A stretch of DNA of 64,000 bases from Catajapyx aquilonaris (lineage: Eukaryota): positions 1 to 64,000 of the forward strand of contig JYFJ02001747.1 of assembly GCA_000934665.2 (NCBI GenBank), read 5' to 3'. How positions within the stretch are numbered: position 1 is the stretch's first letter; every line of letters starts with the position of its first letter. The notes below the pieces were generated by a model. The model was not told the origin of the DNA, ran no database searches, and saw only the letters and a list, made by a program, of their open reading frames with translations. Both the position numbers and the translations under genes were made by a program. Positions 3,565-33,846 of the stretch are shown piece after piece.

Positions 3565-3566
<2 letters not shown>

Positions 3567-5588: not shown

Positions 5589-5931
5589 TAAATTTCTACA
5601 ATGAAAAGACTGCTGCCGCTGTGGATAGGTGCGCATAAAAACCCAGAAGTAAAAACTTGTGTTTGTTTATTTGCAATATCACAGTGTCGACTAGAAAAAT
5701 CAGGTGCACAGAATGGACGGAAATTTGCGGTGATGTTTGATTTAAGTTGTGCAATAAATTTGTACGGACAACAGATAATACAATTAGTGATAATATTAAG
5801 CCATCTTGGTCCAGTCTCCCTTCAGTTCTCACAGTGTCCAAGGCAACAAACTCACAAGCAGAAAATGTGAAAATGTATTGGTGAAATAATATTACCTTAA
5901 ATGTTGGATTCAATTTGATCTATGAACCTCC

Positions 5932-8310
5932 TCATGATCCAATCACAGCCTCACTGACAGGCATGTTAATAATGGCAGTCAGCACTGGATGTGGACAGCT
6001 TTCCCTTATCAGCATAACCTTTATGTGATCTGAAATGCCCAGATCAGACACACACTCGACTCTGACTGAAAACTGGTAGAGTGCACCAGGGACCAGCAGT
6101 GGCAGTGGCAGAAGTGGAGTGAGTACCTTGTACAGCTTTTCATCACATGAAAAGACCACAGAGAGGCCCCTGGCAGCCTGGCTTCCTGCTGACATGTTCT
6201 GAAGGTTGAGCACCACCTTGAAAGACGGGCCCAGTCCCAGCACTTGAGCAGCGAGACGGAGGGGTTCAGTGGAGCTAGTGGACAGCGGGCTGCTCTTGGA
6301 CTGGAGAGCCTGGACATATGCACGGGCCATTTGCAGACGCAGATGGTACAAGTCATGCTGGAACAATGTGTGCATCACTGGGGAGGTGAAAAGAAGGAAC
6401 ATTACTAAAATCTGAATTCCGGTATGAATAATAGATATGGACTGAAGTGCTACTCACACACACAACTATCCCTTTCCCTCATAGTTTGGTCAACAAATAG
6501 CTTGGTCTTCTTGGGCACTTGCAGCTTACCAGATGCAGCAGATGATCTTCCCCCACAACTTGTTCCCATTGCCCCAGATGCGGTTCCTCCTTCCTTCTCC
6601 TCAAAATGCGCAGTCCTTTTGAGTATCTTGACCCCAAGGCCTCCCCCAGCCGTAACAAGCACCATGGCATTCTCCTCTCTCCCAAAGCGACCAAACCTGA
6701 GGGCAGACACGACCTCATCTGTCACCATAGTGTCCACCAGATGTTGTCCCTTATACATTCGGATGGTGCAGTCTGACAAGGAAACTGCCACTAAATGAAG
6801 GCCCAGTTGGCGAACATATACAGGCTGAATACTTGTTATGGATGAAGGGAGCCGGACCTGCCACTGGCGCTTACCCTGTGAAAGATGTTAAATCTTGTGG
6901 GATTCATTCTATGGGGGATAGTGATGTGGTCAATATTGAGTGATTTGCTCATACCTTATTAGAGTAGCTGTTGAGGGTATCATCCATAAGGCCGACAAGC
7001 ATGCTCTTGTCTCTTTGAAGTAGCCCCACCACTTGGGAGTCCAGCTTTACCAATGTTCGGGCAGTCTTCCATGCTCGCTTGAGCAGGCAGAGGTGCCCAT
7101 TCCTGCAGGCTATCACCAAGCGAAACTCCACATCGTACAGCCCGCAAGCTGTCAGGAACACCGGCACTCCTGGTAGTGACATCTGCCAGATGAGGAACAA
7201 CATGAAAAGCTGGACCCCTCAATTTGATGAATTTGCAACTCACCGTATCCAAAATAGTAAAAGCCTGTGGGTCGAGGACGTACACACTCTGGCTTTCTGT
7301 GCCAAGAACAAGGCAAGAGACAGCATCCTCTTCACTCATAGACTTCTTCAAGGCACACATGCATGTTACCACAGTCTGAAAGCACACATTAAATTCACTC
7401 ACTCTTAAGTTTTTTAGAATTATGATATTAATTCACACTTTTAAAAAAGACACATTTCAGCCATAATGTCTCATTTAGAAACTGGTAAGCTTTTCAATTT
7501 GAGGACACAGCACCTTGCATATTCTCTGACCTGTCTCTTTAACGGATGCCCCTTGTGCTGCTGCACAAATTCAGACCACTGGTCTCTTTCTGCTGCCAAG
7601 AACCTTTGCGACCTGGTGGTGAGTGAGGAGTCCCCAGCAGTATGTCTTAGGTTGTGCAGCATCTCATAGAGAACATCTACTTGCAGGTTCTCCTCTCTCG
7701 CTTGGCTCCACAGGTCCTTCTCTACCGGATTCACTTCCAGCGATGGAAGTGTGAACTTGAAGTAAGGCCGCATGTTCTTATAAACATAAATGTGGGATCC
7801 CGATGCTACTGCAACAGCAGGAATTCTAGGCTCGTTGGCATCCATGTAGAAGTCCACCACAGCTGTCGGGAGGTCCAGCACCGTGTTTTCTGACACCAGA
7901 GCAGTCCCACGGAACACCTTCAGCTTGATGCTAGCTGTTCCTGTGCCCAAGTCGGCCAGTACCAGCTTGTAGTCCCCATCACCACTCAAGTCAGCCAGGG
8001 CCATACACCCACTGAAGGTGTAGAGGGTGGCCAGAGGGTCCCAGTGTGCGGAAAGCCATCGAGATGAGGACAACGGAGGGGCAGGGGTTGCCGTCCTGAA
8101 TGAATCAATTAAAATGTGGACACTAAATTACCTAAATTAAAATCAGTCTGAAAGACACGATTCTACAGACAATATCCTTATTTTGGTAATAATAAGCCAA
8201 GATGTATGGAGCGCAGGATTCTACACGGTGCTGCAATGACTTCACCATTCTTGTCAACTTAATTCCTTCAAGCTTGCTTCTACTATTTACCTGATAGCTC
8301 CGGCCGACAT
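5932..8310 (-). CDS. BBS1: Bardet-Biedl syndrome 1 protein (BBSome subunit), 6 exons: 8310-8291, 8095-7531, 7375-7244, 7182-6955, 6875-6458, 6377-5932
   Basis: Spliced product MSAGAIRTATPAPPLSSSRWLSAHWDPLA..LADLSGDGDYKLVLADLG..YVYKNMRPYFKFTLP..SCLVLGTES..RFGRFGREEN..PKKTKLFVDQTMRER..GLGPSFK..AIINMPVSE. All introns are GT-AG and phase-consistent. Confidence 0.95.
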
Positions 8311-10427: not shown

Positions 10428-11720
10428 TCAGGCCATATCCATGTCTGTCTTTTCCTGAGACGTGTCAGCAGGTGCAAATCCTTTCTCCTTGTGGTTGTCC
10501 ATGTTCTTTCGCCGCTTCTGCTCAGCTCTCTTTCCATATTGGAGGACTGCCGGGGAGTACTGGTCGGAGGTTGCACGGGGTCTGCTGCGACCAGGAAGAC
10601 GCTGCTTCTCCTCCTTCATTTGTGATTTCCACAACGCATCAAATGAGCCTGGTGGCTGGTACCTGCTTGATGCAATAACACTTCATAAAATCATATTCAT
10701 GAGATGCTGCTATAGTATAGTGGTTATTCAGATGGTACAGTGCCGGACATAATAGCCGTCGCTGAATGTTTTTTTCCGGCGGAGGCGGCGGCGGCGTTAC
10801 CTGGCAATCCCGTCCGGCGGGCCAATTCAAACATCAGCCCATGGAGAGCGCTTCCATTGTTGCCCCGGCGGGCCAATTCAAACATCAGCCCATGGAGTGC
10901 GCTTCCATTGTTGCCCCGGCGGGCCAATTCAAACATCAGCCCATGGAGAGCGCTTCCATTGTTGCCACTGTTTACAAATCGAGTGAGTGAGTGCGGAGGC
11001 AGAAGAGACCCGTCGCTGGGTCGTCCGCGTCACTCGTTCGATTTGTAAACAGTGGCAACAATGGAAGCAGTCTCCATGGGGTGATGTTTGAATTGGCCCG
11101 CCGGACGGGGTTGCCAGGTAACGCGGCCGCCGCCGCTGCCGGAAAAAAACATTCAGCGACGGCTATTATGTCCAGCACTGTATAACAGATTACAATTGAT
11201 TACATTTGTGAGATTGAAAAAATTAATTCAAGAGTTATAGCTCACCCTGGCTCCTGTGGATCAAGTGGATCTTTGGACAGAAGAATATGAATGGCTGGTA
11301 TCTTCCTCTCAACCTTCAAGTCATCCAACCCTTCCACCTTGGGCACCCAATACTCGTCCACCCTTCCAATAAAACCAATGAATGTAGTAAATCTCTCATA
11401 CAAGTCCCTGAAAAACCATTCTGCAAGATGACCAACTGACTTTTTGTAGCAAACTTTGGTGATCTGGTGCATCCCCTTGTTCCTCCTCTTGAGTATTTCT
11501 GCGCAACTGATGGCCTTGGCCAAGGAGGGGCCAGCCCCACTCCACACCACACTCCTCTTCTGCTGTTCCTTCAGGCTTTTCAGTGCAAACCCAAGCAGGT
11601 TCTTCATCTTGCTTCCAGGCTTCACATGCATCCACACAAAGTCAACAGGGAGGTTCTTAATTGGAATGCTGCTGCGGTCAAGCTCTTCCTCCACATTCTT
11701 TCCCTTTGTGTAATTCTCCA
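10428..11720 (-). CDS. RPP25L: Alba-domain RNase P/MRP subunit p25-like protein; coding exons 11720-11441, 11362-11246, 10662-10428; the A of the ATG is supplied by an upstream exon
   Basis: (M)ENYTKGKNVEE..MHVKPGSKMKNLLGFAL..VVWSGAGPSLAKAISCAEILKRR..MHQITKV..EYWVPKVEGLDDLKVERKIPAIHILLSKDPLDPQEPGYQPP are RPP25/RPP25L family motifs. Introns are phase-consistent. Confidence 0.85.
10738..11180. mobile_element. Foldback-type Tc1/mariner-pogo MITE in the RPP25L intron
   Basis: TA|CAGTGCCGGACATAATAGCCGTCGCTGAATG ... CATTCAGCGACGGCTATTATGTCCAGCACTG|TA. The arms are complementary almost to the centre. Confidence 0.92.
10815..10967 (+). repeat. Three tandem 51-bp units inside the MITE left arm
   Basis: GCCAATTCAAACATCAGCCCATGGAG recurs at 10821, 10872 and 10923 (period 51). 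Confidence 0.95.
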
Positions 11721-12429
11721 CTGAAATGGCACAAAAATGCTGATCTAAATTCAATTTTCAATGTGATGGCAAATTGCTTTTAACGAAAGTGAAATCAGTT
11801 TATCATGTTAATGACACTCACAGAATATACCATTTTTCTTGTAGCTTATGGTGTGGTCCATTTAGTATTTAGCAAACCAATAATGCCCTGCAAAATGCAG
11901 ATGGGATGGCAGAAATGCCTCCTATACATCACCATAACATTTCTATGTGAGAGGTGTAGTCAGCAACAAGTGTCACAATAATTTAATTACATTAACCTAC
12001 AAACACAGAGCACATTATTAGGCAGCATGCATTGCAATAAAATTAATTGTAATCAAAATGTCCCAGTAAATCTGTCTGGAAATCTGCAATTTCTTATATC
12101 CGCATTCGAGGAAGCTGCAGTGGTATTCGAACAATATTGCGAATTGTCTCGGGTGCTACATTATTATGCCATTGTGCCGTGATGCCAGTGAACATTTGGG
12201 TACGAATGTTTACTAATTAGCTTACTTTTTTGCTAATTATGCTCTCATATTATGCCAGGACACTTTCCTGTTATTCTAGCCACTCTTCCAATCCACAATG
12301 TAAATCAGTTTCTGTTAACAATACATGCAAAACCTCAGTTTAAAAATATGTCTACAGACACGCTGCATCCAGCAATGCCAGCAATTGTAAATCTAAAGAC
12401 ATACAAAGCACGTGAAACGACCTTACTTT

Positions 12430-13272: not shown

Positions 13273-15785
13273 ATGATGGCCCTACCGTTGACCCATCCCC
13301 TCCCGACTGGGGTCCCAACCGACCCTGTGGCCCAGATGAATACGTACCGCTCCTTTGTGACTATGCTGGCTGATCCGGGAGCAAAGGATGAGAACAAGCT
13401 GAAGGCAGCGCAGGAACTCAGCGAGAATTTTGAGCTGATTGTCACCTCAGCACAGTATCCGAGCTTTCTGGACCATGCAATGACTATTTTTGTGCGGATT
13501 TTGCAAGATGGAGACCCACATTTTGTAGCAGAATATAATATACAGGTTGGAGGCATGAAGTTGTTGTCTGTGACTGTAAAAGGTCTAACAGTGGACTTTA
13601 TGACTAATTGGTCATGGTTAAATTGCTCTAAAAGAAAGATGCAATGTCTTGATTTGTGGAGCATTTGTAACACAGTAGGGTTTGTAGATGAAATTTTGAA
13701 AAAATATGAGCCATGTCAGTGATAAAAGAGCAATTTTTAAATGAAACTCTGCGCTAATGTACAATTTTGGTTTTCATTTGGCAGCAAGTCAGAAAACTAA
13801 TATTAGAAATGATTCATCGCTTTCCTATCAATGAGCACATGAGGCCATATGTGAGACAGATTCTGACGCTTACGTTCAAACTTCTGGAGGTCGAGAATGA
13901 GGAGAATGTGCTGGTGTGTCTCAGAATTATTATTGAAATGCACAAGCAGTACCGACCCCAGTTCAACCAGGAGGTGAGTGAAAATTTAAATTCAGTTGTT
14001 TTCCCTGACGCAGTATGAGGTGGTAGTTTCAATGGTACTTTGAACAAGAAGCATTTTACTTCAGCATATTTTAAGTACATGCATTTAACTTCAGATCCAG
14101 GATTTTCTTCAGTTTGTCAAGTCAATTTATCGGCAGTTGCCCACTCACCTGAACAAGATATTTGAACCTAAGCCACCCATAAAGGTGAAAGACCTGAGTG
14201 AGGTTAATATTGATGTCTTGTTGAATGAGACATACACGGTAACCCCAATACAGACTGAGAAAAAGGCAGCCGAGAATGCCTTGATCACGGTGAGCACCGT
14301 GTCTGTAAGTATTTATGCGTGGCTGAATCTTTGGGTCAGTCACCATTGAACAACTACATGCCATTTATTTCTTTGCAGTACAACCTGATCCCAAAAGCAG
14401 TATTGTCTCTGAAAGTCCTTCAAGAGTTACCAATCATTGTGGTGCTCATGTATCAACTGTACAAGCAAGCAGTGCAGCAGGATGTTGCAGATTTTATTCC
14501 ACTGATAATGACCACTATCACACTCCAGCCATCTCTACAGCACCGGTGAGTTAGGCTTGAAAGCAAAGGAGCTAGAGAGAAAGTGGTGAAGCGTATTTTA
14601 AAAATAGTATGAAGAGTTTTTGAATTTTTTGTCTATGTTTTGTATGTATATCCAGATTGTGATTTGTTCTAGTCAAATTACTGTTTGACAGCATGTTAAT
14701 GTGTATTTCTCCATCAGTTCAAGCCCTACCTTCAACAAGGAGGTATTTGTTGACTTCATGGGTGCCCAGATCAAGACCCTCTCCTTTCTGGCTTACATAA
14801 TCAAGATCTACATGGACAATGTGACTCAGCACAGTAACATGATGGTTAAGGGAATGCTTGGTCTTCTAACCCTCTGCCCAATGGAGGTGACGCACCTCAG
14901 GAAGGAACTGCTCATTGCTGCCAGGCACATCCTGGCAACCGATCTGCGCATTAGTGAGTTTGAGGGCTGCTATATTTGGAGAGCAAGCTCTAAACGGCAA
15001 ATAATTTCAGAGTTTGTTCCGTACATGGACAAGCTGTTTGATGAAAACATCCTGCTTGGAAAGGGTTGGACCACTCATGAGTCACTCCGACCACTAGCCT
15101 ACAGCACACTGGCTGACCTGGTGCATCATGTGAGGCAAAACCTTCCATTGACACAGCTGTCCTGTGCTGTACATCTCTTTTCCAAGAATGTACATGATGA
15201 GACTCTACCTACCAGGTGAGTTAACCTGTCATCCAAGGGAACAGCAGCTTTTAATGCTGCCTTAAGCTGGGTATCCATGTAAAAGATTCTCGTGCCAGAG
15301 TCCTCTTGTGCGGGAAAACTTGTCTGTTGAGACGGTCTCTATTTTGACTCATGGCCCCTCTGAAAGGGGATTAAAGTTGACAATTTTTTACTGTTTCTCT
15401 TTCTTCCAATACGGGCAAGTTCGCTCCTCTTGGCTCGAGAAAACTCTAGTGTCGATACCCGGCTTTACACTATGTTTGCATTGTTCAGGCTGCCGGAACC
15501 ATTTGTCTATGTATGAAAAGAGGTTAAGTGCTACCTTCAGAATAATATTATACTTGGTACACGGTGAAATTAATTGTCTACGTTACTTCTTAACCGTGCT
15601 GTTCTTTCCAGCATTCAGACAATGTCATGCAAACTATTGCTGAATTTGGTGGAGTGCATCCGCCAGAAGAGCGAGTCTGAAAAAGGGAGTGGAAAGGAGC
15701 TGTTGATGATGATGCTGGAGGTGTTTGTTCTCAAATTTAAAACTATTGCTAAGCTCCACCTTCCGATCTTGATCAACAAGTGTAA

Positions 15786-15818
<33 letters not shown>

Positions 15819-18800
15819 GCAAATGTCACAACCAGTAAATCCGCCTGGGACTCCGCAGCAGCTGTCTGCAATGGGGATACCTCCAAGTGCCATACCAACA
15901 ACCCCAACTCAGCCTGGGACTCCCACTCCATCAAATTCATACCCATTGTCGAATACCACTCCAATGCAGGTTGAAATCAAGACTGAAGATGGTGTGTCAA
16001 CTCCAAAACCCACAATTTCAGCTGATTCAAAGGAGGACAAGGAGAAGGACAAGTCCAAGTTTGGCTTTCCAGTGTCTCAAGCTGGGAATTACACGGTTCC
16101 AGATTGTCGTAGCTTGGTGAAAACTCTTGTCTGTGGAGTAAAAACAATCACCTGGGGATGCACCTCATGCAAAGTTGGCGTAAGTCCATTTAAGCATACT
16201 ACACAATCCAAACTTGAGCATGCGTATTTTTTATTTTTTTTGCAACTATCACTGTATTTTTGTAAGATAAAATGGACAATAACCATATTGTTAGCTTTGT
16301 AATGCAATGATTGACATGTGCTTTATTGGTGCACCGACATTTTTTTTTTTTTTTAACTGAGAAAAGAAAATTGGGAAATTCATAATACAGCATGTTATAG
16401 ACACATATTTGCATGTAGCTCAACACTTACACAACTTTCCAAGCATGCACATCTGTTACTTGTAGACAACAATGGACCCATCTATAGCACAATACAAACA
16501 GTTCCAGCCCAAGGAGACCCTGGTGTTTATCCGCCTAGTGAAGTGGGCCATGCAGGCGCTGGACATCTACACCATCAATGTGACTCCTGCTGGTCAGCTG
16601 CAGCCCCCCAGGCCACCTGCAGTGCAGACCTTTCGCTCAAAGGAAGAGAAGGAAGTCCTGGAGCATTTTGCTGGAGTGGTATGAAAACTTTGTTGGTCTT
16701 TAAAAAGTTGTTGGGAAATCTTGACGAATAAAATATTTCAAAGCTGAAGGGAAGCAAAGTTGATACATTTCAAGTGGCAGTTTTAGCCCATCATATTTTA
16801 AGGGACTTTTTTTGTTTTTTTTTTTACCCAGTGATAAGGCTGAGCCTTTTTAGGGGGGTGGAATACCACCATTTCACTCCATTTTTCCTATTATCTTCAT
16901 TCACCGGTGCAAGGAGTCAAGGATGTAGGGTAGGGATAGGGATTTTTGGGGACGTTGGTGCAAGTGTGAAGTCGGTAAAGGGGTCATGTGCTGTTCCCCA
17001 GGAGGTTAGGTTGCCAGACACCTCATTGGTGCAGGTGAGAGACCCTCCTGACGCAGGTGAAAGGAAAGTTCCCCAGGCGGGGATCGAACCTGGGGCCTTT
17101 CACTCAGCAAGCCGAGATGTTACCATCTCGGCCATCTACACCTCCCCTAGGGACATTTTTAGGGACATTATTTATTATTTAAATTTTTCAGTGCCAAGTA
17201 AAGCTTGAATACAGCTTCTACAAAGTGTCCAACTTTGGTGTGCCACTTTTAAACATGCCTGTAATCATACGGTAGTAAGTTGGTAGATGATGGGATAAAT
17301 TTGTAATTTTGAGAAATCACTGATGTGTCTTAGGCCGCGTTTCCATGTGAGCGATTTGCTCAGGGATGAAACCAATTGTTTTGGGTGAAAGTAACGTTTC
17401 GCTCCCAAACAATTGCTCATTCCTGCACATCGCTGATAAAATTGCTCACATGTAAACGCGGCCTTATACTATGCTAAAGACAGTGGTTACATGTCAGGAA
17501 GTTGAGTTACTGGCTTGTGTTTCTACAAACATTGTTTTGTTCTCTCCTACAGTTTGGAATGATGAACCCACACACATTCAAGGAGATATTCTCTACTACT
17601 ATTGATTACATGGTGGAGCGTATCTACAAGAACACAGCCCTGCAGATTGTGGCCAACTCATTCCTTGCCAATCCAACCACTTCCCCAATATTTGCCACTA
17701 TTCTAGTGGAGTATCTGCTAGAGAGAATGGAGGAGATGGGTAGCAACCTCGATCGAAGTAATCTGTACCTGAAACTGTTCAAGCTTGTGTTTGGGAGTGT
17801 CTCGCTTTTCGCTGCCGAGAATGAACAGATGCTAAAACCACATCTGCACCAAATTGTGAACAGGTAGGCTTGTTTCACTTAGGTTACTGTTGTATTATGT
17901 CCAAAAAGTGCTGGACGAAAAAATAAATCTGTTTGAAATTTCTGCAACAGGTCAATGGAACTGGCCCGAAGTGCCAAGGAGCCCTACAACTACTTCCTCC
18001 TGCTGCGTGCCTTGTTCCGATCAATTGGTGGCGGCAGCCATGACTTGCTCTACCAAGAGTTTCTTCCTCTCCTGCCCAATCTTCTTCAAGGATTGAACAG
18101 CCTCCAATCTGGATTGCACAAGCAGCACATGAAGGATCTTTTCGTTGAGCTCTGCCTCACTGTCCCAGTCCGTCTTAGCTCTCTTCTTCCATACCTACCC
18201 ATGCTCATGGACCCTCTGGTCTCTGCCTTGAATGGATCTCAGACCCTAATTAGTCAGGGACTGCGCACACTGGAGCTGTGTGTTGACAATCTGCAGCCAG
18301 ACTTCTTGTATGAGCATATACAGCCTGTGAGGGCAGAGTTGATGCAGGCTCTGTGGAAGACCCTGCGCAATCCCAATGACCAGATTGCACATGTGGCCTT
18401 CCGGGTATTGGGCAAGTTTGGAGGGGGAAATCGGAAGATGATGATTGAGCCACAGAGGCTGGAGTACAATGAGAGAGAGACACCAGGACCAAGTCTGACT
18501 GTCTACTTCCCAGAGCATAGGGATCCTGTGGCTCTTCCAGTTGAAAAGGTAAATGGGTCTGGTGTGAAGAGGCTTTGCAAAAGTGCTTACTTGGGGGGCA
18601 TCAGTGCAAAAAGCTACACGAACAAAATTTCTTTTCAAGAGAGGCAAAAAACTTCTCATGGAATTATTTATTGTCAAATACAATTTTATGAATGGCTTTA
18701 GTTAAATTATGTTGCATGCAGAGTCGTGTTCCTAAATTATAAAATGCATTATATACTATGGCAATAATTTTAAAAACCATTTTGGATCAGTTATGTGTTA

Positions 18801-21800
18801 CACTGATTGGACCAACTGCATTTTGATTCAGACAAGGGACTGCAAAATTAGGCATGATTCTTTTTTGGGTTAGTGATTAACTTTTTTTTTCCGAGTACCT
18901 TTTAAATGTTGATATTCACACTTCTGGAAAAAATCACCTGGAATGCAGTTCACAATTTTTGGGCGTGTTGGTATTTTTCAGTCAGGTATTGCTTTGGCAT
19001 TGCCCTCATCATGTTTGGTCAGGCTCGTAACATCGTCGATAAATGTCCCATGGACTGAAATGGGCATGTTTCACTTTGACCCAACACCCCACTTTCAAAG
19101 AATCATGAAGATCAAAAATTGCACTTGGACACAACCTTGTCTTTAAGATATATATACATGGAGAGTCTGGTAACAAGAATATTCTGCCCCTTTTAGCTGA
19201 AATCACAATGTGTATCTGTACCTTTTTCCCATGACATGCCTCGCTTTATCTTACTCTTTTAGGTGATAGAAACTGCATTTGGAGCCCTGAAGTCCAGCAC
19301 TACTGAGCCTTTCTACCGCAAACAGTGCTGGGAGGTCATAAAGTGCTTCTTGGTGGCTTCCATGCATCTGGACGATGACAAGGCCACTATGCAGGGTCTC
19401 TTGATGCACCCCAGCTTCTATGAGAGCGATGTCTCTCCAGTGCAGGGAGGATGTGCGAACCTCTACAAGTGCGCAGACAAGCAGGCCCGCCATGTCCATC
19501 AGATGGCTGTCACAGGCATGTTCGTAGCTGCAGCAATTAAGGAACTGCGACAGGCCGTCCTCCCAACAATGGTGTCACTAGTGCGACACTACACCATTGT
19601 TGCCATTACCCAGCAGGCCGGTCCATTTCCTATGATCACCAAGCAAGGGAAATTGCAAGGAATGGATCCACTAGTCATAATTGATTCTTTGGCTGTCATT
19701 ATGGGCCACGAAGAAAAGGAGCTCTGCAAGCCAGGCCATCTGAGTCTGGTGCTGATTTTGGACACAGCAACAAACATACTTGGGTCTAAATCAAGGGCAT
19801 GCAGGCTTCCTCTCATGGAGTACTTGGCTGACAGAATGTGCAGCTTGTGTTATGACAGGGCCTGGTATGCAAAGCTGGGTGGATGCATAGCCATTAAATT
19901 TTTGTTCGACAAGATGGACCTTAAGTGGGTCTTCGAGCATCAGTTTGTCTTCCTCAAGGCATTGCTGTTTGTCATGATGGATCTCACTGGGGAGGTAAGG
20001 TTCTTTTTGTGCCTTTTTTGGAATATCTTGTTCATTTTCTAATATGACATCCCAGATTTTTCTAATCCACATCTTATTGCCACCTAACTAAAGATACTCA
20101 TCCCAGTTTTGCTAATCCCATTTGTGTGACTTTGTACCCTGCAATTTTTATTTTTTTACTTTGTCCTTGGGAGTTGGTTGAAAGAGAGTGACTCGAATTT
20201 TCTGTTTCCCCAGGTATCAAGTGGTGCAGTGGACATGGCAAAATCCAACTTGGAGAAGATGCTGATGCTCTGTGCCACAGTTCTCCCCTCAGATAGTAGC
20301 TGTGACCCATCCCTTGCCATGGCCCAGAAGAAGAGCCTTCATGATGTGACCCATGAACTTGTGCGCCAGGTGACCAGCCCAAACACTTTGGTTCGCGAGC
20401 AAGCCATGCACTCTCTTCAAGTGCTAGCTAAGATTCAGGGCAAGAATGTGACTGAGGTGATGGAACCACACAAGGAAGTCCTGGCTGACATGATCCCTCC
20501 CAAAAAACACCTACTAAGGCACCAGCCTGCCAATGCGCAGATTGGACTGATGGAGGGAAACACATTCTGCACCACCCTCCAGCCCCGTCTCTTCACCATC
20601 GATGTGACTATTCCAGAGCACAAGGTCTTCTTCATGGAGCTCATATCAGTTGCAGAGGGGGATGAGGACTTCTTTAACAAAACTCCATGCTACAAGGGCA
20701 TAACAGACTTCATTCCACTAAAGAAGGCTGCTCTCAAGGCTTTGGCTGCATGCCATTATGTTGTATTAGGGAGGGACAGAATTCTCAAGGCACTCTTCAA
20801 GGTAAGGATTTCTCGGAACAAATACCAGGATAAAAATATCAGAGGTAAAGTCATGATAATTTGGACATCAATTAACCAGACTTCTTTATTACCTGTTTAT
20901 GTATTGCATTGTGACTACAACTTTATGACTCTTGGAATAAGAATTGCTATGACAAATTACTAATAATTACTTTCTTTACTTTTGAAGGCTCTGAGCCAGA
21001 CCACGCTGGAGCTCCAAAAGGCAGCATTTGAGTGTATGCAGCGCTTTATCAGTGGGGCTCACACTGATATTGAGATCATACACACACAGATGCGTCCATT
21101 GTTGTCTGTGTTGGCTGATTTTCGGGGTCTTAACCTCAATGTCCTCCAGCAGTTGGCTTACCTTACTCAGCTATTCCCCAACACTTTCAATGAGAAGTTG
21201 TGTGACCAGCTCATCCAGCATTACAAGAAGTGGCTTGAAGTTGCAATTGTTTCACACAAGGGAGGTACACGGGGCAATGGAAGTGACCTGAAGATTGCTG
21301 CAGCCATTGTTGGGATTTTTCACCTCATACCTGCTGCCTCCACCAGATTCATTGAATCTCTCTGCAAACTGAGCCTGCAGGTGGAGAAGGCATTGATGAT
21401 GGAAGCTGGTAGTCCCATACGCGAGCCACTCATGAAGTTTTTGTTGCGATATCCAGAGCAAACTATTGAGTTGTTCTTGGCAGAATCAAATGTACGTGAT
21501 CCCCAGTGGAGTCGTTACCTGCACTATCTCCTAAAGCACAAGGATGGCCATCCATTTCATGAGGTCCTGCAGGCCAACAGCCACCGTTTGTTGGGGATGG
21601 CTCTGGGAGGAAATGTGCCGCAAGTGACACAACTTGGTTCACACCTACAGTCAGCAGAAGTGGGAGAGATCAAGTTTCAGAGCATTCGCATAACTTCAAT
21701 TATGATAAAACATGATGATCAGTGGTTGAGTGGGCAGCATCAGCTGGTGGCTGCCTTCAAGAATATGTGGTGCACTGATAGTTATCAGGAACGACACCGA

Positions 21801-24800
21801 CACACTGATACTGTTGACTACTCGCACTGGAAGGAACCAAAACTGTTGGTCAAGATTCTACTCCAGTACTTCTGTCACCACACTTCCGAGATTGACCTCT
21901 TGTTTCAGCTTCTTAGAGTCTTAACAGACCGATTCCTGACAGACTTTCAGTTTTTGAAGGACTTTTTAGAGGTGACAGTGGCACAGAACTACACTGTGGA
22001 ATGGAAACGACAAGCATTTGCAAGATTTGTGGAGAAATTCTCTGATCCCAATGTGTCACAGGAACTTAAAGCAAAAATATTGCAGTATGTGCTCATTCCA
22101 TGTTTTGCCACAAGCTTTGAGAAAGGTGAAGGTGAACGACTTATTGGTAGTCCTCCAGCCCCTGAGCATGACAACCAGGAAAATATTGTGAGCGTGTTCA
22201 TCAGCCGTGTGATTGATCCTGAGAACCCATTTGGTACCTCTGACTCGATCAGGATACTGCTTCTGCAGTTCTCGTGTCTCTTAGTAGAGCAGGCATCACC
22301 TCACATTCATGATGCAGCCAACAAAAGACAAGGCAACAAGCTTCGGCGTTTGATGACATTTGCCTGGCCATGCTTACTGGGGAAAAACTGTGTGGATCCC
22401 ACCACTAGATACCATGGACATCTCCTCCTCAGCCACATCATTGCCAAGTTTGCCATACACAAGCGCATTGTGCTGCAGGTTGGTGCTCTTTCATGTGCAC
22501 TTTTTGCATTGTAACTTGCACCCAATTCTTCATGTCATAGAATGTAGACTGATATTTTAAAGGTTGTGGTCTCGTTGATTTAGAAATGTGATTGATGAAA
22601 AGGGGAAGGCCAATGTGATGAGAATATTTTTCCTTGGTATAGGTGTTCCACTCACTTCTGAAGGCTCATGCAGTGGAGGCACGCACAGTAGTCCGCCAGG
22701 CTTTAGAAATCCTAACCCCTTCAATGCCTGTGCGCATGGAGGATGGTAATACAATGCTGACCCACTGGACAAAGAAGATCATAGTGGAGGAGGGCCACTC
22801 CATGGCCCAGTTGGTTCACATCCTCCAGCTGGTGGTTAGACACTCAAAGGTGTACTACCCAGTCAGGCATCACCTAGTCCAGCACATGGTTACCTCTGTA
22901 CAAAGGCTAGGATTCACTCCGACTGCCACAATAGAGCACAAGAAGCTGGCTGTTGAGTTGGCCGAGGTTATCATCAAATGGGAGCTGCAGAGGATCAAGG
23001 ATGAGGCAGACTTGCAGGAGGTTCGGATGATTTTTAGTTGCATGCTGAGGTTTGCAAGTCCTAAATACTAAGGCATTGTAGTATTGAATTGTTTGGATGC
23101 TATGTGTTCTGTTTGTACATTGAAGTCAATATGTGATGTAGGTTACATTCCTGTGGATATCTTAGATTTTCATGACTCATTATAAAACAAGCATTATATT
23201 GTACTCTTTCTTTGAGTCTCTTGAGATATGTTTTATTTTTAGAAGTTTACTTTTGTAGTTGTTTCTGAATTTTTTTCAATTATTTTTACTGATCAGCTCA
23301 ATTGCTTTACTTTAGCATGCTAGATAGTTGCATGTAGGTAGAACCAATGCATGTATAGAGCTGGTTCATTTATCCATCTAGAGCCAGAGAGAAGTGACCC
23401 AGGGTTTAGCCCACGGCATAAAGCGCCTGGCCATTGACCCCCAGACGGACATGAAGAAAATACGCCAACATCCTGCCGCTGTCCCCAAGTTGACTGAAGC
23501 CACCAAGCCCATTGAGAAGATACATGCCGAAGCCATTGTCAACTGCCTGCTTCGCCTAGCTTGTCAGGTTGGTGTTCATAATGGGGTTACAATTTTTAGT
23601 TTCAATACTTGAAAATTGTGTGGCATTCTTCAAATCAGCTTGCTTAATCAGAAATTGAACACAAGAAAATTTTATAAGTGTGAAACTGTTAAACTCCTGG
23701 ATAAGCAACCTTTGATGTCCAGAGTAGGGCCCTGTATATTTTTGTAATCGTTCGTGAAATTCAATCCTAGGTGAATGAGGCGACTGTGACAATTGGCGCA
23801 CCTGGTGAGGTCCTGTCTCGTCGATGCGTGGCTTTGTTGAAGACCGCCCTCAAACCAGATGTGTGGAGCAACTGCGAAGTGAAGTTGGGTTGGTTTGAGA
23901 AGATGTTCAACAACATGGAGAGCAGCCAGCCGAACATTGCCAACCTGTGCACTGCCCTCGAGCTTCTGACCTTCCTGCTGGGAATCTTACGCAAGGAGCA
24001 GATCCTTGCTAGCTTCAAGCCACTTCAGAAGGGAATTGCCTCTTGCATGACCAGTGCCAACTCAAAGGTCAATTTTTAGAGATATATTTTCGGTGTCAGT
24101 AAAAAACAACTAAAAATCATTATCTTCCAAGGTGATTCGGGGTGTCCATGGCTTGCTGACTCGCCTGATGAGTATCTTCCCAACTGAGCCCACCAATTCA
24201 ACAGTGGCTTCCAAGCATGAAGAGCTAGAGACACTCTACGCAAGTGTTGGCAAAGCTGTGTATGAGGGCCTGGCTGCATATGAGAAGAACCCGACTGCCA
24301 CTCCATCTACTCTCTTTGGGACTCTGATGCTTCTGAAAGCAGCCTGTGTGAACAACCAATGTTACATTGACCGTCTAATCACCTCCTTCATGCGTGTGCT
24401 GCAGAGGATGGCTAGAGAGCATTTAAGCCAGCCCTCTCCAGAGGCAGGGGCAGTGGCCAATGAGCTGCTCATCCTTAGTCTTGACTTGGTCAAGAACAGG
24501 GTTGGCGTCATGGGGCTTGAGATGAGGAAGCTGTTTATTGGGACTATTCTGGTGTCGCTCATTGAGAAGTCTCCTGATGTCAAGGTCATGAAGGCCATCA
24601 ATAAGGTAATGGGAGTTGATTTGCAATAATTGTAATTTGTAAGATTAGATTTACACATTTAATTTTTTCCATAAAAATAAATAATGTTACCTGCCTCATT
24701 TGTAGATGTTGGAGGATTGGATGAAAAACAAGAACCTGATTGCCATCAACCAAGGTCCTAGTCTGCGGGAGAAGTCCATCTTGTTGGCCAAAATGATGCA

Positions 24801-27800
24801 GTATGTCGAAAAGCGCTTCCCATCTGACCCGGAGCTAAATGCTCAATTCTTGGAACTGGTCAACTACATCTACCGTGATGAGCAGTTCAAAGGGTCAGAC
24901 TTGACTGCCAAACTTGAACCTGCTTTTCTGGCTGGGTTGCGATGTGTGCAGCCTCACATACGTGCCAAATTTTTTGAAGTGTTTGATGCCAGTGTGCCTC
25001 GCCGTTTGTATGATCGCCTGCTATATGTGGCCTGCTCTCAAAACTGGGAGTCAGTGGGACCTCATTATTGGATCAAACAGTGCATTGAGCTGCTGATAGT
25101 GACTGCAGTTCCAACTGCATCCATCCAGAGCCAATGCCCAGGCTCTCTCTTGCCATCAGTGGGGTCTGTGGTGCAGTGGGCAGAACCATCTGACAGGGCA
25201 GCCTTCTCCAACTTTGCCAACTTGGAAACATGCAGCAACGCCAGCCTGGATGCAGAAAGTTTGGAGCAGCATGTGAAGGAGGATGACCTGGATATTGACC
25301 TGCCGGAGTCAGCCACTAAGCAGGAGGAAGTTGATCCAAAGGCCAATCTCAAGCTAATCATCACTAGACAGGCAAAGTTTCTGGAAAGTGTCAGAGAGGT
25401 GAAGACTGTTCATTTTCTGCAGTCTATGGCCCAGTTATGCCACATGGACACCCCATTAGCAGAGAGGGTCTGGCTTGATATATTCCCGCAGATGTGGCGT
25501 ATCCTGAAGGAGAGGCAACAACATGTAAGTAATAGTCCCTGCTTATTGAGTTACCACTTTCCATGGAAGAGTAATTGATTGCTGTACAATTGTTGGGTGG
25601 GTATTCAACCAGTAGTGGGAATTTTATTCATATGTTGTTATTATCTGTTGGATTCCATAGGCTCTCCTCATGTGCTACACTTTAAAGTTAATCTAAAGTG
25701 GCCATCAGGAAATGATGAGAATAAATAGGATGAGTCTGCTCCTGCTTTGCAGTTTGAGCGTCTCATGATTATTAAAACAAAAAAGCTGATAAGATCTGAT
25801 CCAGTCTCTAGGTGGCCATTGCTAGTTTTGTGATGTAGGGCTTTGGGATGTACAACAATAAGGGCTAATAGATATATCCAGATTGTTCATTTGAAGGGCC
25901 TGCATTTTTGGAGTAGCAGTTACTGACTAGGGTCATTTTTATTTGTAGGCTCTGGCAGGTGAGCTGTCCACATTTGTGTGCAGTGGCTCACATGTAATAC
26001 AGAAGGATTGCCACCTGAGTGCAATGTGCACATTTGTGGAGTCCATGTCCCAGTGTGTTCCAGCCATCCCAATGAAACCGTGCGTGGTGAAATACCTGGG
26101 CAAGTCGCACAACCTGTGGCATCGGATGACTCTTTTGCTGGAGCAGTCTGCTTTTGACACCAATGCTGCCCCCGGTCATTTGAAAGCCCGAAGTGATGCA
26201 GCCGACTGCTATGAGTTTGAACCGGTCACCTCTCCACTGCAGGAAACCATGGATGCACTGTCAGAGATGTATTCCCTGCTCAGAGAAGAGGACATGTGGG
26301 CAGGCTTGTGGCAGAGAAGGGCGAAATATAATGACACTAATGCAGCCATTGCTTATGAGCAGCAAGGGTTTTTTGAACAAGCTCTTGCTTCATATGAGCT
26401 CTGCATGATGAAAGCCAAGACAGAGTTCTCAACCATCGCTGCACCGGTTAGTAATGACCATTCTATGGTGACTGAAAATTCAGTAGTCATCCCCACATTT
26501 TAAAATCACAGGGCGACATGGTGGCGGAGTGGTTAGCACCACAGCCTTCCACCTCTGATCCTCCACCTGTGAGGTCCCGAGTTCGATCCCTGGGTTGGAC
26601 GGATGATACTTATGTGGATAGAGTTTCGATGGGTTCTCTCCGTGTTTGCGTGGGTTTTCTCGGGGCTCTCCCGTTTCCTCCTGCAATGAAAATCCATCGC
26701 AGCACAAGCAATGATTAAAGACGGTTTACAAAAAGGTGATCCCCTAAGAGGCCCAAGGAGGCCTATCACGGGGTATCCATTATTATTATTTTAAAATCAC
26801 AAAGTTGGTATAGTACAACATGACTATATCTGAACCCTATTGTAGTGAAAACTTGCAGTGAGATGGCCGACACGGTGGCTGAGTGGTTAGTGCCATGGCC
26901 TTCCACCTCTAAGGTCCAGAGTTCGATCCCCAGGTTGGATAGAGTTTCGATGGGTTCTCTCTGTGTTCGCGTGGGTTTTCCAGTTTCCCCCCCGCAATTA
27001 AAATCCATCACAGCGCAGGCAATGATTAAAGTCAGATATTTAAAAGATGATCCCCTAAGAGGCCCAAGGAGGCCTATCACGGGGTATCCACTATTATTAT
27101 TAACTTGCAGTGAGATACCTGACGTAGCTAATTCCTCAAATTGAATTCAGGCATTATTCCCTATTCCCATAAATATGAAGTGAATAGAGAAATTCATAAT
27201 ATGCGTTCTTCAATTCATATTGCAGCAATACTGTATAGTCAAACCTTGTTGCAATGATATGCTCTTCTTGGTTAGGTGAGCATGCAGTCTGAGATGCGAC
27301 TGTGGGAGGACCACTGGGTGCGGTGCTCAAAGGAGATGAACCAGTGGGATGTGCTGCTTGAGTATGCCACCAGTAAGGACTGCCGCAACCCAATGCTAAT
27401 TATGGAAAGTGCTTGGAGAGTTCCTAATTGGATCCTGATGAAGGAAGTGTGCAAGGAGGCTGAACAGTTTTACCCCAAGGAGCTTGGCTGGAAGTATCAT
27501 CTGCATTCGGGCTTTCTGGACATTTTCAAGCCAGATCAGCCAGACTTGGCAGCAGTGGAGAAGCATGTGGAACAGGCCAGCAGTGTCTGCATGAAGGAGT
27601 GGAGGCGCCTTCCACATGTGGTCTCGCACATCCACCTGCCATACCTACAGGCTGCCCAGCAGATCATGGAGCTGCAGGAGGCAACCCAGATTCATCAGGG
27701 ACTCAGTCATGGGAGGGCCAATGCCCTTCATGATATGAAGGCAATTGTCAAGACCTGGAGGAACCGCCTTCCTGTGCTCGCTGATGACCTTAGCCACTGG

Positions 27801-30800
27801 AGCGATATATTCTTCTGGAGGCAGCACCACTACCAGGTCCGATGAGACATTTTCAATTATCAGTTATGCTCATACTACACAGTAAGCTCAAAACAGGTGT
27901 GGGAATTCCATTCACTATCAATGAATTTACCATTTTAAGTAGTGGCGATACAGTGCATTAATTGGTGTTTGGGAACATTACACGTGTAGTACAAGTTTTG
28001 AGTGTCCTATCGTAAGCTTGCATCTATTCATGGCAAGTTTACATGCACAGTATACAGGGTGTTCAGAAAGTATGCAGGATTCTGAATTTTAAAATCCTGT
28101 GAAATTTTGTTAGAGAATTTATTCTTGAAACACAAGCCTTGCAAGGTTAGGATGCACAGTTCTGTGAGTTAAAATTTTATTAAATGTGATACAATTAAAA
28201 ACTGGGAAATGACCACTGTCACACCTTGGCACATGGTTGTGGATCAGTTGCCTGCTCTCATGATAGTAATGCAGAGTGTTTAGTATACAAGTGTCCATTG
28301 GCAGGTCCTTTGACTAAATGTTGTACAATTTTCACTTCATAATGGTGTTCTGTACATCTGGTATCAAACTCAGATTATATTTTCCAAACATCATGCTTGT
28401 CATAAAAGACGTTTGGAACAACTAGTCAAATGAACAATCAAGGTGCCAACAAAATGTAGTGTATGCCTTCAACAACATGCCGTAACTCTTTGACCTGCCT
28501 TTTCAGGTGATATCATCCCACTATGATTCTCATGACCAGGCTACAAATCACAGCATGCTTGGGGTGCATGCGTCAGCCCAGGCCATCATCCACTTTGGGA
28601 AGATTGCTCGCAAGCACAATTTGACAGGGGTGTGCCTGGACTCCCTGTCGCGCATCTACTCCATTCCCAGTGTGCCCATAGTCGACTGCTTTCAGAAGAT
28701 CCGACAGCAAGTCAAGTGCTACCTGCAGATGGCACAGGTCATGGGGAAGAATGAGCTGCAGGAGGTGAGCAAATGTGTTGTCCCTGGCATGCCCAGGATC
28801 AAAATCTGTCTGGTTTGCTTGTGGTAAGGATATTAGTTGCCACACTATATTATCAGATCATACTCATTCACGCAGAATTAAAATTGCACATTAAATGAGA
28901 AAAATATTCTGTGTAAGGACTAGCCCTTAGTGTGAATAGCCACTGCACTATGTTGGCTTAAAAGGTGCAACCAGTTGTCCTGAGCTTTCTGGTTGGTATA
29001 ATGCTGACCAATCATGACACTTTTCATTAATCCAACATTGTTCCAACAGGGCTTGGAAGTGATTGAATCAACCAACCTGAAATACTTCAGCAAAGAAATG
29101 ACAGCTGAATTTTATGCACTCAAGGGAATGCTCCTGGCTCAGATTGGCCGATCAGATGAAGCCAATAAGGCCTTCTCAGCAGCAGTGCAGATGCTGGATA
29201 CCCTAGTTAAAGCCTGGGCTCTCTGGGGAGAGTATCTGGAGCATATATTCTCAAAGGATTCTAAGCAAATGAACTGGGGTGTTTCAGCTGTCACTTGCTA
29301 CCTGCATGCCTGCCGCCACCAAAATGAGTCCAAATCCAGGAAATACCTGGCCAAAGTTTTGTGGTTGCTGACCTATGATGATGAGAAGTCATCTCTGGCA
29401 GAGAGTGTGGACAAATATTGCATTGGTGTGCCACCCATTCACTGGCTGCCTTGGGTGCCCCAACTACTGACCTGCCTTGTGAGGAGTGAAGGGAAACACA
29501 TCATGAATTTGCTGGGACAGGTTGGACGACTATTTCCACAGGCAGTCTATTTCCCCATACGTACCCTCTACCTCACCCTCAAGATTGAGCAGAGAGAGAG
29601 GTATAAGAGTGCAGAGATGGCTGCTGCACTGGGAAAGCAGATGTCCCTGTCTCAGTCTCCACAGGTAAAAGATTATATCCTTTTATGTCACAAAATATTT
29701 TTTGAATGAGTATTAAATGAACTTATTTGTAGTACATTAAGCTCTGCAGATTTTTAGCAACTAATTCGATTCTTTAGAAGCATACAGGCCGAATTTCAAT
29801 TGTGTTATGCACTGTGATTCCACTTATAAGTGGGCAGTTTCTAAAATTATGCACTGGTCGTGGGTTATTTCAGGTGGTCGCCAGTGGTAGCTCCACTACA
29901 TCAGCTGATTCTACAACTCCGGGCACCCCAATGACACCTGTCACTGCTGAAAGCTTGGCACAGAGTGCTCAGCAACAAGGTACGTTAAGAAGGAGAAGAG
30001 TAACCATTATTGTGGAGCAAAGGATCACTTTTTTTTGAGTACTGAATTCTTTGCAAGTTTGGTTTTAAAATGTCTTGTTGTGTATTCTTGGAACCAAAGC
30101 ATGGGATAGGAGACAGTTTTTATGTCACTATGACCATCAGCATTCGATACATGCAAGACAGAGACATAAATATTTTAAAAAACAGTCTTTCCTTTCTTCT
30201 TTTTCCTCTTCGTTTCTGTCTCCATTTGTCCCACCTTTGCATCTTCTACAGTCAGATAGCCATAGTTGCTTTGGCTCCTTCCAAATAAACCTGACCTAAA
30301 CCTAAGCAACTGGTCCCAGTGATTGCAACATAGCATGTGACTATGATGACAACTGCAAACTACGAACATCCTAACTATAGTCACAAATTTTTTGTGCAGG
30401 TCAAATGCCATCATCGCAGCCCTCTGCTCAAACATCCAGCCAGGCAGAGAGTGGGGGTGCCCCCATTCGTGCCACTCCTCCAATGTGGATGTGCTCCCGC
30501 ATCATGCACACACAGCGAGATGCTCATCCAACAGTCCTCTCTTCCTTGGAAGGGATAGTGGATCAGATGGTTTGGTTCCGTGAAAACTGGTACGAAGAGG
30601 TCCTCCGCCAGTTGCGTCAGGGCCTGGCCAAGTGCTATGCCATTGCATTTGAGAACAGAGGCGCAGTTGCTGAGGCCACCATCACCCCTCACCTGCTCAA
30701 CTTCGTCAAGAAGCTGGTATCTACCTTTGGGATTGGGATAGAGAACATTTCTAGCTCTGTTAGTGCTAATTTTGGAAGCACAGCATCGGAGAGTCTTGCC

Positions 30801-33800
30801 AGAAGAGCCCAGGCCACAGTCCAGGATCCAGTGTTTCAGAGGATGAAGGGGCAGTTTAGCAGTGACTTTGACTTTGGTGTTGCTGGTGCCCTCAAGCTGC
30901 AAAGTCTTATCTACAAGCTCAAAAAGTGGATTAAGGTTCTTGAGAACAGGACAAAGTTGCTGCCCACGTGAGTTGCCCCTCCAACAGTAAATGTCTAGGC
31001 TCATGTTTTTCTTTGGCTGACTACTTATGCTAGCAGTCACCAATGTCGAAGTGCACTTGATTTTATCTATGCCAGGTTGATCGAGTTACACCAGGACGGA
31101 GTTTACATTCATATGAAAACCAATCCCATGCCCTTGGGAAGTTATGTGACACATCCCTTCTTGCCAATCCTATTTCCTTCGTAATCTTAGCACTCTTTTA
31201 ATCATTGTTGTTTCAGCTGAAACGTGTGTGTTTCAGAAAACTTTTGCAGGTATTCCTGGAGTAATTTAAGAAAGTGCCTCCTTGTGAACTTCCTGAGGTA
31301 GATATTCATGGACTCCTTTTTTCCCCCACAGGTCATTCCTTATTGAGGAGAAGTGCCGGTTCTTAAGCAACTTCAACCTGCACACAGCAGAAGTGGAACT
31401 TCCAGGGGAGTTCTTACTCCCTAAGGTAAAGGTAGTAACCGTTTCCTGTCCATACCGTGTTGTCTACCCTGAGTTTGTGTGTGCCTATCAAACCTGCTCA
31501 TTACCAGGGAAAAGGTCAAGTCCTTCTTGTGTGTTTGTAACTCAACCACCCTATTTACCACCTGGTTTTACATTGTAGTGCTGTAACAGTGTCTCATTTT
31601 TGTCTCCGAGATTTTGCTCTGCCTTGGTTTTTTAGATTATAAGCCCCTGTACAATGATGCTGAAATGACCCTCCCTATCATGCTTGTAAGTGTAATACTT
31701 GGTGTCATATGTTCATGAAAAAGTAATGATTGAAAGCTTACTTGTCAACCCAGTAAAATGAGTGGATTTTTTGAGTTTCTTAGTCACAAGTATTCTTGGA
31801 GTCACTTTTCATTTAGTTGTGATTCCTTTGTCATGATTTGTATGTATGCATATATCTGGCTCTGCTTGAAATCATTTTCAGCACACACACTACTACGTGC
31901 GAATAGCCCGGTTTATGCCCCGAGTGGAGATTGTCCAGAAGCACAACACTGCTGCACGAAGGCTGTATATCCGCGGCCACAATGGGAAGATTTATCCATA
32001 TTTGGTTGTGAATGACTCTGGTCTTGGGGATGCCAGGAGAGAGGAGAGGGTTCTGCAGCTCCTGAGAATGCTCAATGGATATCTTGGAAAGCAAAAGGCA
32101 TGTCTTCTCTCGGATCTGATTCTCAGGAGTGTTACACTCAAATCTTATGCTATTACAGGAGACGTCCCGTCGCTTCCTGAACTTCACTGTTCCTCGAGTG
32201 GTGGCTGTTTCCCCGCAGATGCGCTTGGTGGAGGACAACCCATCCTCTGTGTCACTCTTAGATATCTTCAAGCAGAGGTGCTCCCGTCGGGCGGTGGAGC
32301 ATGACATGCCTATATCCAAGTACTACGACCGTTTGGCTACTGTACAGGGGAGAGGGTCACAGGCCAGCCACCAGGTCTTGAGGGACATCCTCAGGGACGT
32401 CCAATCCAACATGGTTCCTCGCTCAATGCTAAGGGAGTGGGGGGCACATGCTTTCCCATCTGCCACCGATTACTGGACTTTCAGGAAAATGGTCAGTCTG
32501 AGAAGGGTGTTTCAGTGATAAGCTGTAGTGGAATGCATGCCTGCCTTGAGCTTGCTGTGAAAGAGGGTGCTATTATTGCTTTCAGTGGGGTGGTTTTGGT
32601 GGGAGATATTGCATCAAGTGATAGTTGTTGATGTAATTCATCATGCACAAACAGGACAGCACCATTTCCTCTCTTTCATGCATAATCCTTAATTACTGCA
32701 GTGGTGAATAAGAAGAAGCACTATTTTTTAGGAACAACTGCTTGTGTGAGGATAGTGTGAAAAGAACCTTCTTATAATATAATCCGTTGGATGGTCCATG
32801 CTAAGTAGACTTCTTTTTCTTTGCAGTTAACCCTTCAGCTGTCCTTAGCGGGGCTGGCGGAGTATGTCCTCCACCTGACTCGACTGAACCCAGATATGAT
32901 GTACCTGCACCAAGATTCAGGCATGATGAATGTGTCTTACTACAAGTTTGATGTGGATGATGGCTCAGGAGAGCTGGATGCCAACCGCCCAGTCCCGTTC
33001 AGGCTCACTCCAAATGTGTCGGAATTCCTCACGCCGATAGGTGTGGGGGGACCTTTCACTGCAAGCATGGTAGCTGTGTCAAGGTGTCTAGTGCAGCCCT
33101 CCTTCAAGGTGCAGGCCATCCTCAGGGCTGTGCTACGGGATGAAATGATTGCGTGGCACAAAAAGGTAAGGGGAGTCAGTACGCTTGGTCTAGAACAGGG
33201 GTGGCCAAACCGCGGCACTTTGACATTACATGTGTGGTTCTCGGACATATGCTGACTGGGCTTATTCCTTTGCTGGTCAGTAAAAAAGTTAATGCTGACT
33301 ATGACACGGTTTTTTAAAGGTAATACGAAGCAACAATTGTGAAAAAGAAAAAGTATGTGTAATTTTGTAATATTTGTTTATGTCTCGCGGCTCTTCAGTG
33401 CCTGAAGTTTATCGCATTTGGCTCTCACGTTAAGCAAGTTTGGCAACCCCTGGTCTAGAATATGTTGTACATCTTAATTTTTTTCTGCAGAAGCAAGATG
33501 ACAGGGAAAGTGTGACAGGTCAACCAGCAGACATGGAAGGAGACCTCTTAATCAGCATGGTCAGTAAGGCTGTTAGTGCCATCATGAACAGGCTTCAGTC
33601 ACTTTCCACGTTGGACGGGAACGATAGTAAGGTAAGACATACATTATTTTAGTACAGTTAATGTGTATTATAAACACATGTAGGAGCTGAACCCAATGTG
33701 ATCAAAAAATTCGTAAGAAGCTTACAATTTTCCAGTTGAGCATCGTCTACAAATAATTTCTTTTGCAGGTGAGCACTCTTGTCACTGCTGCCAACAGCCA

Positions 33801-33846
33801 CGATAACTTGTGTCGAATGGACCCTGCCTGGCATCCTTGGCTGTGA
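13273..33846 (+). CDS. TRRAP: Transformation/transcription domain-associated protein (TRRAP / Nipped-A / Tra1), PIKK pseudokinase, 30 coding exons
   Basis: Exons: 13273-13545, 13785-13973, 14095-14289, 14379-14545, 14718-14953, 15011-15215, 15612-16179, 16466-16678, 17553-17863, 17951-18548, 19263-19994, 20214-20801, 20988-22478, 22643-23020, 23382-23567, 23771-24067, 24132-24605, 24706-25524, 25949-26446, 27276-27836, 28507-28764, 29050-29664, 29874-29979, 30400-30967, 31332-31425, 31882-32097, 32159-32491, 32827-33165, 33491-33631, 33769-33846. Hallmarks: LRPLAYSTLADLVHHVR, LFRSIGGGSHDLLYQEFLPLL, LFVELCLTVPVRLSSLLPYLP, FAT domain WRNRLP..DDLSHWSD, kinase-dead LTRLNPD/VPFRLTPN, and FATC end NLCRMDPAWHPWL*. 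Confidence 0.97.
15787..15822 (+). repeat. CAG/CAA repeat encoding Q12 in TRRAP
   Basis: (CAG)7 CAA CAA CAG CAG CAA, in frame in exon 15612-16179. Confidence 0.95.
16807..17147 (-). mobile_element. tRNA-derived SINE with poly(A) tail in a TRRAP intron
   Basis: Minus strand: A box TGGCCGAGATGG, B box GGTTCGATCCC, 3' CCCCCTAAAAAGGCTCAGCCTTATCACTGGGTA followed by an A-tract. AGGGAC occurs on both flanks (probable TSD). Confidence 0.85.
17333..17463. mobile_element. PIF/Harbinger MITE (131 bp)
   Basis: TTA|GGCCGCGTTTCCATGTGAGCGATTT ... AAATTGCTCACATGTAAACGCGGCC|TTA: 25-bp TIR with 2 mismatches and a TTA TSD. Confidence 0.88.
25708..25802 (+). ncRNA. Intronic box C/D guide RNA (scaRNA) predicted to 2'-O-methylate U2 snRNA U47 (human numbering; U48 in Drosophila); mgU2-47/SCARNA28-like
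   Basis: C box ATGATGA 25712-25718, D box CTGA 25796-25799, terminal GGA/TCC pairing plus an outer TGGCCA/TGGCCA stem. D'-like TTGA at 25754 and C'-like ATGATTA at 25765. The D-guide AAGCTGATAAGA (25783-25794) is the reverse complement of insect U2 UCUUAUCAGCUU as recalled. Confidence 0.75.
26511..26787 (+). mobile_element. tRNA-derived SINE (copy A) in a TRRAP intron
   Basis: A box TGGCGGAGTGG, B box AGTTCGATCCC, tail GATCCCCTAAGAGGCCCAAGGAGGCCTATCACGGGGTATCC plus (ATT)n. 14-bp TSD ATTTTAAAATCACA (26497-26510 / 26788-26801). Confidence 0.92.
26865..27101 (+). mobile_element. tRNA-derived SINE (copy B, same family as copy A)
   Basis: Same head, body and tail as 26511-26787. 15-bp TSD AACTTGCAGTGAGAT (26850-26864 / 27102-27116). 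Confidence 0.92.
33196..33452. mobile_element. hAT (Charlie-like) MITE in a TRRAP intron
   Basis: TIR CAGGGGTGGCCAAAC / GTTTGGCAACCCCTG with a perfect 8-bp TSD GTCTAGAA (33188-33195 / 33453-33460). Confidence 0.93.

Follow-up and report, generated by a model that had tools for sequence, protein, structure and literature searches.

The element at 25708-25802 of the window (the whole 64,000-nucleotide stretch of DNA analysed here) is probably a working, intron-borne box C/D guide RNA for the equivalent of Um47 in U2, processed from an intron of the TRRAP gene, a reading that we draw from sequence and to which we give a probability of about 0.8. It is best read as doing the same job as mgU2-47/SCARNA28 in vertebrates and scaRNA:MeU2-48 in Drosophila, and so belongs to a kind of system already known. 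[quoted passage not shown] The candidate would extend this set by a guide of arthropod type that shares its host gene, though not its host intron, with vertebrates, and that is compact and lacks the vertebrate Cajal-body signal.

The whole TRRAP gene lies inside the window on the forward strand, with a coding region at 13273..33843 that begins with a first coding exon at 13273-13545 and has its last exon end near 33843. The element sits about two thirds along this gene, in a 424-nt intron (25525..25948, forward strand, GT..AG, phase 0) that was not found in a second copy within the window. The upstream exon (24706..25524, forward strand, ending in KERQQH) corresponds to human TRRAP residues 2371-2646 (E 1.4e-92), and the downstream exon (25949..26455, forward strand, starting with ALAGELS, 3′ end approximate) corresponds to residues 2647-2805 (E 2e-59), which bears out the original prediction that the element is inside a TRRAP intron. 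The intron is real and spliced, since a transcript contig of run X1 joins 25524 to 25949 and skips exactly the intervening GT..AG gap. The contigs of this run (kind unknown) cover the exons and the splice joint and leave the intron uncovered, a pattern that has no bearing on small-RNA expression. Within its intron the element runs in the same direction as TRRAP and lies 149 nt short of the 3′ splice site.

The boxes of the candidate RNA were read directly from the sequence. Near the 5′ end of the predicted mature RNA (25708..25802, forward strand, about 95 nt, ends inferred from the boxes), the C box AUGAUGA (25712-25718) fits the RUGAUGA consensus, and near the 3′ end there is a D box CUGA (25796-25799), as in other box C/D RNAs; the starts of the two boxes are 84 nt apart, in line with the roughly 85 nt originally described. 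Immediately upstream of the D box, and separated from it by the single base T25795, lies the 12-nt antisense element AAGCUGAUAAGA (25783-25794, forward strand; AAGCTGATAAGA in DNA letters), which is complementary to U2 UCUUAUCAG(C/U)UU. Counted back from the D box, the fifth base is A25791, and it faces the second U of the UU in UCUUAUCAG. This second U we take to be U47 in human U2 numbering, in agreement with the papers cited below. The stretch 25783-25794 would thus have what is expected of a guide, namely at least 10 nt of complementarity that ends one base short of a D or D′ box, with a known 2′-O-methyl site opposite the fifth base. Both the one-base spacing and the register at U47 under the D+5 rule had been part of the original prediction and held on re-examination, the register with reliance on the human guide, as described in excerpts from PMC4041459, and on the usual numbering of U2.

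Internal boxes are also plausible, as had been suggested: a possible D′ box UUGA (25754-25757, forward strand) agrees with the consensus at three of four positions, and a possible C′ box AUGAUUA (25765-25771, forward strand) at six of seven. Directly 5′ of the D′-like UUGA is the stretch GTCTGCTCCTGCTTTGCAGT (25734-25753, forward strand), a putative D′ guide. It overlaps a predicted internal hairpin of standard pairs (25730-25766, forward strand, AUGAG...CUCAU; -14.5 kcal/mol, z -1.73, with 13 of 200 shuffles as good), and may simply be one arm of that hairpin. We also observed that the C box region (25711-25720) and the C′-like region (25761-25770) are 90% complementary over 10 nt; this pairing could be an alternative that competes with kink-turn formation, or could be incidental.

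The ends of the candidate RNA are held together by 3 contiguous base pairs (25708-25710 with 25800-25802), the short terminal pairing already recognised in the original prediction and less than the 4-5 bp usual for box C/D RNAs, with a stem of 7 bp just outside. External stems can stand in for the terminal stem of a box C/D RNA. In the minimum-energy fold of the 121-nt stretch 25700-25820 (forward strand), GGCCAUC at 25700-25706 pairs with GGUGGCC at 25811-25817 to form this external stem, and the fold as a whole reaches -34.4 kcal/mol (z -2.39), a value equalled by 3 of 200 shuffles. Taken without its flanks, the candidate RNA was not unusually stable relative to shuffles (z -0.89).

Mechanistically, the guide would be transcribed within the TRRAP pre-mRNA and released with the 424-nt intron on splicing, the step that the transcript contig documents. 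With the C and D boxes drawn together by the 7-bp external and 3-bp terminal stems, a kink-turn would form as the platform for the core proteins, which in box C/D RNAs are fibrillarin, Nop56, Nop58, and Snu13, and exonucleases would trim the intron to a protected RNA of about 95 nt. In the mature particle AAGCUGAUAAGA would pair with U2 UCUUAUCAG(C/U)UU, and the base opposite the fifth nucleotide upstream of the D box would be methylated. The uridine so targeted, numbered Um47 in vertebrates and Um48 in the fly, would be the one that directly follows the branch-point recognition region on its 3′ side.

The closest published parallel is human mgU2-47, which excerpts from PMC4041459 describe as a 189-nt box C/D scaRNA equivalent to SCARNA28, located in TRRAP intron 2 in the sense orientation and with the “evolutionarily conserved Um47” in U2 as its predicted target; the name SCARNA28, the intron 2 location, and the U47 target are confirmed in the portions of PMC12150615 consulted. 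The statement in the original prediction that this vertebrate guide is hosted by TRRAP was therefore correct. Since the FISH probe for mgU2-47 given in the same excerpts begins with TCTTATCAGTTT (PMC4041459), the human guide must end in AAACUGAUAAGA, and this probe-implied guide matches that of the window at 11 of 12 positions, the sole difference being G for A. At this variable position the window's G can still pair with U or C in U2; were the U2 base a C in this species, the G in place of the human A would be a compensatory change. A literature search for a U2 motif with C at that position returned nothing relevant. The two RNAs are thus alike, as far as the excerpted human description goes, in directing one antisense element, next to the D box, at U2 U47, with an identical guide core CUGAUAAGA, and in register, host gene, and sense orientation. 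They are unlike in length (189 nt compared with about 95 nt here) and in host intron: the window's guide is not in the 5′-most TRRAP intron, as mgU2-47/SCARNA28 is, but in one that falls between human residues 2646 and 2647, and no guide is present in the window's own first coding intron (13546-13783). With a host intron other than that of vertebrates, the pairing of host and guide holds at the level of the gene only. The human RNA is also reported to have its own MYC-dependent promoter (excerpts of PMC4041459 and PMC12150615). In chicken, a table entry for GGgCD76 lists a predicted 160-nt guide for U2-U-47 in TRRAP intron 1 with a 3′ antisense element (PMC2653536); compared by that entry, it resembles the window's candidate in predicted target, in the 3′ position of the antisense element, and in host gene, and differs in its length of 160 nt and in its location in intron 1.

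A further difference concerns the Cajal-body signal. Localisation of human mgU2-47 to Cajal bodies depends on a UG-repeat terminal stem in a long apical hairpin (excerpts of PMC4041459), whereas 25708-25802 contains no UG or GU repeat, and hence no UG stem of this kind in an apical hairpin; the compact form lacking an obvious UG repeat, as originally proposed, is in accord with this, its length of about 95 nt being inferred from the boxes. The Drosophila C/D CAB box has the consensus cgaGUUAnUg (as quoted in the excerpted text of PMC4041459), and comparison by eye found only a partial resemblance to it in the candidate, GCAGUUUGAG at 25749-25758. In the predicted fold, the UGAG of the candidate falls partly in a stem, with its U in a bulge, and not in a terminal loop. 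We therefore use “scaRNA” for the window's element as a functional label only, as we saw neither a UG repeat nor a clear CAB box.

Drosophila provides an arthropod guide for the equivalent uridine. According to excerpts from PMC3884663, fly mgU2-48 (scaRNA:MeU2-48) is intron-derived, concentrates in Cajal bodies, has a reported CAB box, and methylates position 48 of fly U2, as demonstrated in yeast; Um48 of the fly is described as positionally conserved with the human site in the part of PMC13228274 consulted. The supplement to the latter lists scaRNA:MeU2-48 as a 125-nt RNA at chr3L:1498871-1498996, and Nipped-A, the fly TRRAP, is placed at the 2R heterochromatin boundary (excerpt of PMC13434574). 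With one on 3L and the other on 2R, the fly guide is not in TRRAP, so arthropods include a case in which the guide has left this gene. A literature search pairing Nipped-A with scaRNA found nothing. On these partial sources, the fly and window RNAs share an arthropod setting, a box C/D architecture, the equivalent U2 uridine, an intronic origin, and a similar size class (125 nt in the fly), whereas the fly RNA is on chr3L outside Nipped-A and has a reported CAB box and Cajal-body concentration.

How much of this could arise by chance differs between the boxes and the guide. In our own scan, pairs of C and D boxes closed by 4 bp or more of terminal stem occurred about 1.8 times per shuffled window, so that box pairs alone are not significant, and with its 3-bp stem the candidate itself fails this filter. 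The exact pattern CTGATAAGA-N-CTGA occurs a single time on both strands of the 64 kb, against an expectation, calculated from base composition, of about 4e-5 per window for the 16 fixed bases of guide and D box. The significance lies in the guide, not in the boxes. Covariance models, proposed as a check in the original prediction, lent it no support: a search of the whole window against Rfam gave no match at the gathering score, leaving the element unrecognised. At E-values of up to 10, the intron yielded three generic C/D alignments only, the best being snR61 with 20.7 bits, where the gathering score is 45, and these weak alignments anchor on the C box at 25712-25718. The same E-value scans of the whole TRRAP gene and of the intron of a metagenomic TRRAP locus described below (L005) gave weak generic or irrelevant matches only.

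The original prediction had also called for mapping the intron position across TRRAP orthologues. After alignment of the downstream-exon region with 15 homologues, metagenome contigs were scanned, which gave a set of 62 metagenomic TRRAP loci (262,751 bases, about 4 kb on either side of one exon per locus) that was searched for the 12-mer with at most two changes, followed by N and CTGA. The position of the window's host intron is occupied by an intron in 19 of these loci (75-875 nt), contiguous in 15, and uncovered in 28, and none of the 19 loci with an intron at this position carries the guide there. Conservation at the intron level is therefore not shown, and the gene is what recurs. The position is thus shared, the guide at that position is not, and the survey returned a guide in another TRRAP intron.

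This guide was the only match among the 62 loci, where chance alone would give 0.15 matches to the loose pattern and about 0.003 to its 14 fixed bases without any change. It belongs to L005, a metagenome contig from an animal, in which GCUGAUAAGA-U-CUGA lies in the sense orientation within a 292-nt TRRAP intron (7786-8077). This intron, which interrupts the kinase-like domain after …ELPGEFLIPK and before HAHYYVKIARF…, gives the U2 guide a third position among TRRAP introns. The guide occupies 7977-7986 and the D box 7988-7991, the latter 86 nt from the 3′ splice site, and about 129 nt before the D box lies a variant C-like box, GUGAUGU (7859-7865), which keeps the four bases that pair with a D box. 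Even so, this candidate is weaker than that of the window, as it gave no Rfam C/D alignment and folds no better than shuffles. Shared with the window's RNA is a single 16-nt stretch, which runs from the last ten bases of the guide through the spacer base and the D box to one base beyond. Thus the guide and D box, the sense orientation, and the TRRAP host are alike, whereas the kinase-domain intron, the GUGAUGU box, and the box spacing of about 129 nt set L005 apart, with nothing else similar. Reciprocally, L005 has an intron of about 86 nt, free of the guide, at the position of the window's host intron, and the window intron at the position of the L005 host intron (31426-31881, 456 nt) was read and has no guide. 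The latter intron contains ATGATGCTGAAATGA, a C-like box abutting CUGA, with neither a guide nor a plausible box spacing.

Two other accounts of the window's element seem very improbable to us. One is that C- and D-like boxes have come together by accident with a 12-mer complementary to U2, in an ordinary intron that gives rise to no stable RNA, and this would fit with the frequency of short-stem box pairs (about 1.8 per window by chance), the 3-bp terminal stem, the lack of an Rfam match at the gathering score, and the missing guide in the homologous intron of 19 other loci. It would, however, have to accommodate 16 fixed bases, with an expectation of about 4e-5 per window, whose register fits a known and conserved site of methylation exactly and which lie in sense orientation in the same gene as the vertebrate guide, as well as the return of guide and D box in a TRRAP intron of another animal (L005), where 0.003 was expected; of all the readings considered, we regard it as the least probable. 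Scarcely more credible is that the RNA is a real box C/D RNA but a decaying or redundant copy, with the working U2 guide elsewhere in the genome. Drosophila offers a precedent, as D. melanogaster has its guide on 3L and Nipped-A at the 2R boundary, yet the C box, the D box, and all 12 bases of the window's guide are intact, the external stem flanks them, and the sequence bears no marks of decay.

A separate question is whether such a guide was inherited with its host. It could have been captured by TRRAP independently, which we consider unlikely, albeit clearly less so than the two accounts above. As a long gene that has many introns and is widely required, TRRAP would be a large target, the host intron differs from that of vertebrates while the first coding intron (13546-13783) lacks a guide, and the window and L005 RNAs share nothing beyond the 16-nt stretch. 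Set against this is the TRRAP location of the guide in vertebrates, in the window's animal, and in the L005 animal, as repeated landing in one gene would be very unlikely. The alternative, which we put forward tentatively and at slightly less than even odds, is that TRRAP has hosted the U2-Um47 guide since before the arthropod/vertebrate split, and that the guide moved between TRRAP introns and left the gene in the Drosophila lineage. The guide is found in the 5′-most intron in vertebrates, in a FAT-region intron in the window, and in a kinase-domain intron in L005, and these three lineages, two of them represented by sequence predictions, would support an ancient TRRAP host with changes of intron. 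The ancient host-gene/guide pairing originally proposed would apply to the gene and not to a particular intron, and the fly equivalent lies outside Nipped-A altogether. If an ancient host were confirmed, host-gene fidelity without intron fidelity would suggest selection for co-expression of the U2 modification with TRRAP, and the window and L005 together offer a testable case of a guide RNA that may have been faithful to one host gene for a long time while switching introns.

The surroundings of TRRAP in the window bear on the kind of animal. About 1.5 kb upstream of the TRRAP start, a single open frame on the opposite strand (11242-11757, reverse strand) encodes an Rpp25-like/Alba-domain protein (PF01918) whose best named matches are all insects, at no more than 55% identity. 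The designation “arthropod” in the original prediction is supported by these matches. A tree of TRRAP fragments (103 rows) left the window's animal in an open polytomy, so that it is not placed there. Similar peptide-like strings recur in the ORF translations at 26476-27146, ~2077-2706, and 16732-17208, in several introns and in intergenic DNA, which suggests a dispersed short repeat family. A long trinucleotide microsatellite at ~3223-3627 appears in the ORF lists as a run of some 30 codons for Asn or Ile, and upstream of the Rpp25-like gene several long open frames, which may be exons of another gene, occupy ~5930-8130 on the reverse strand.
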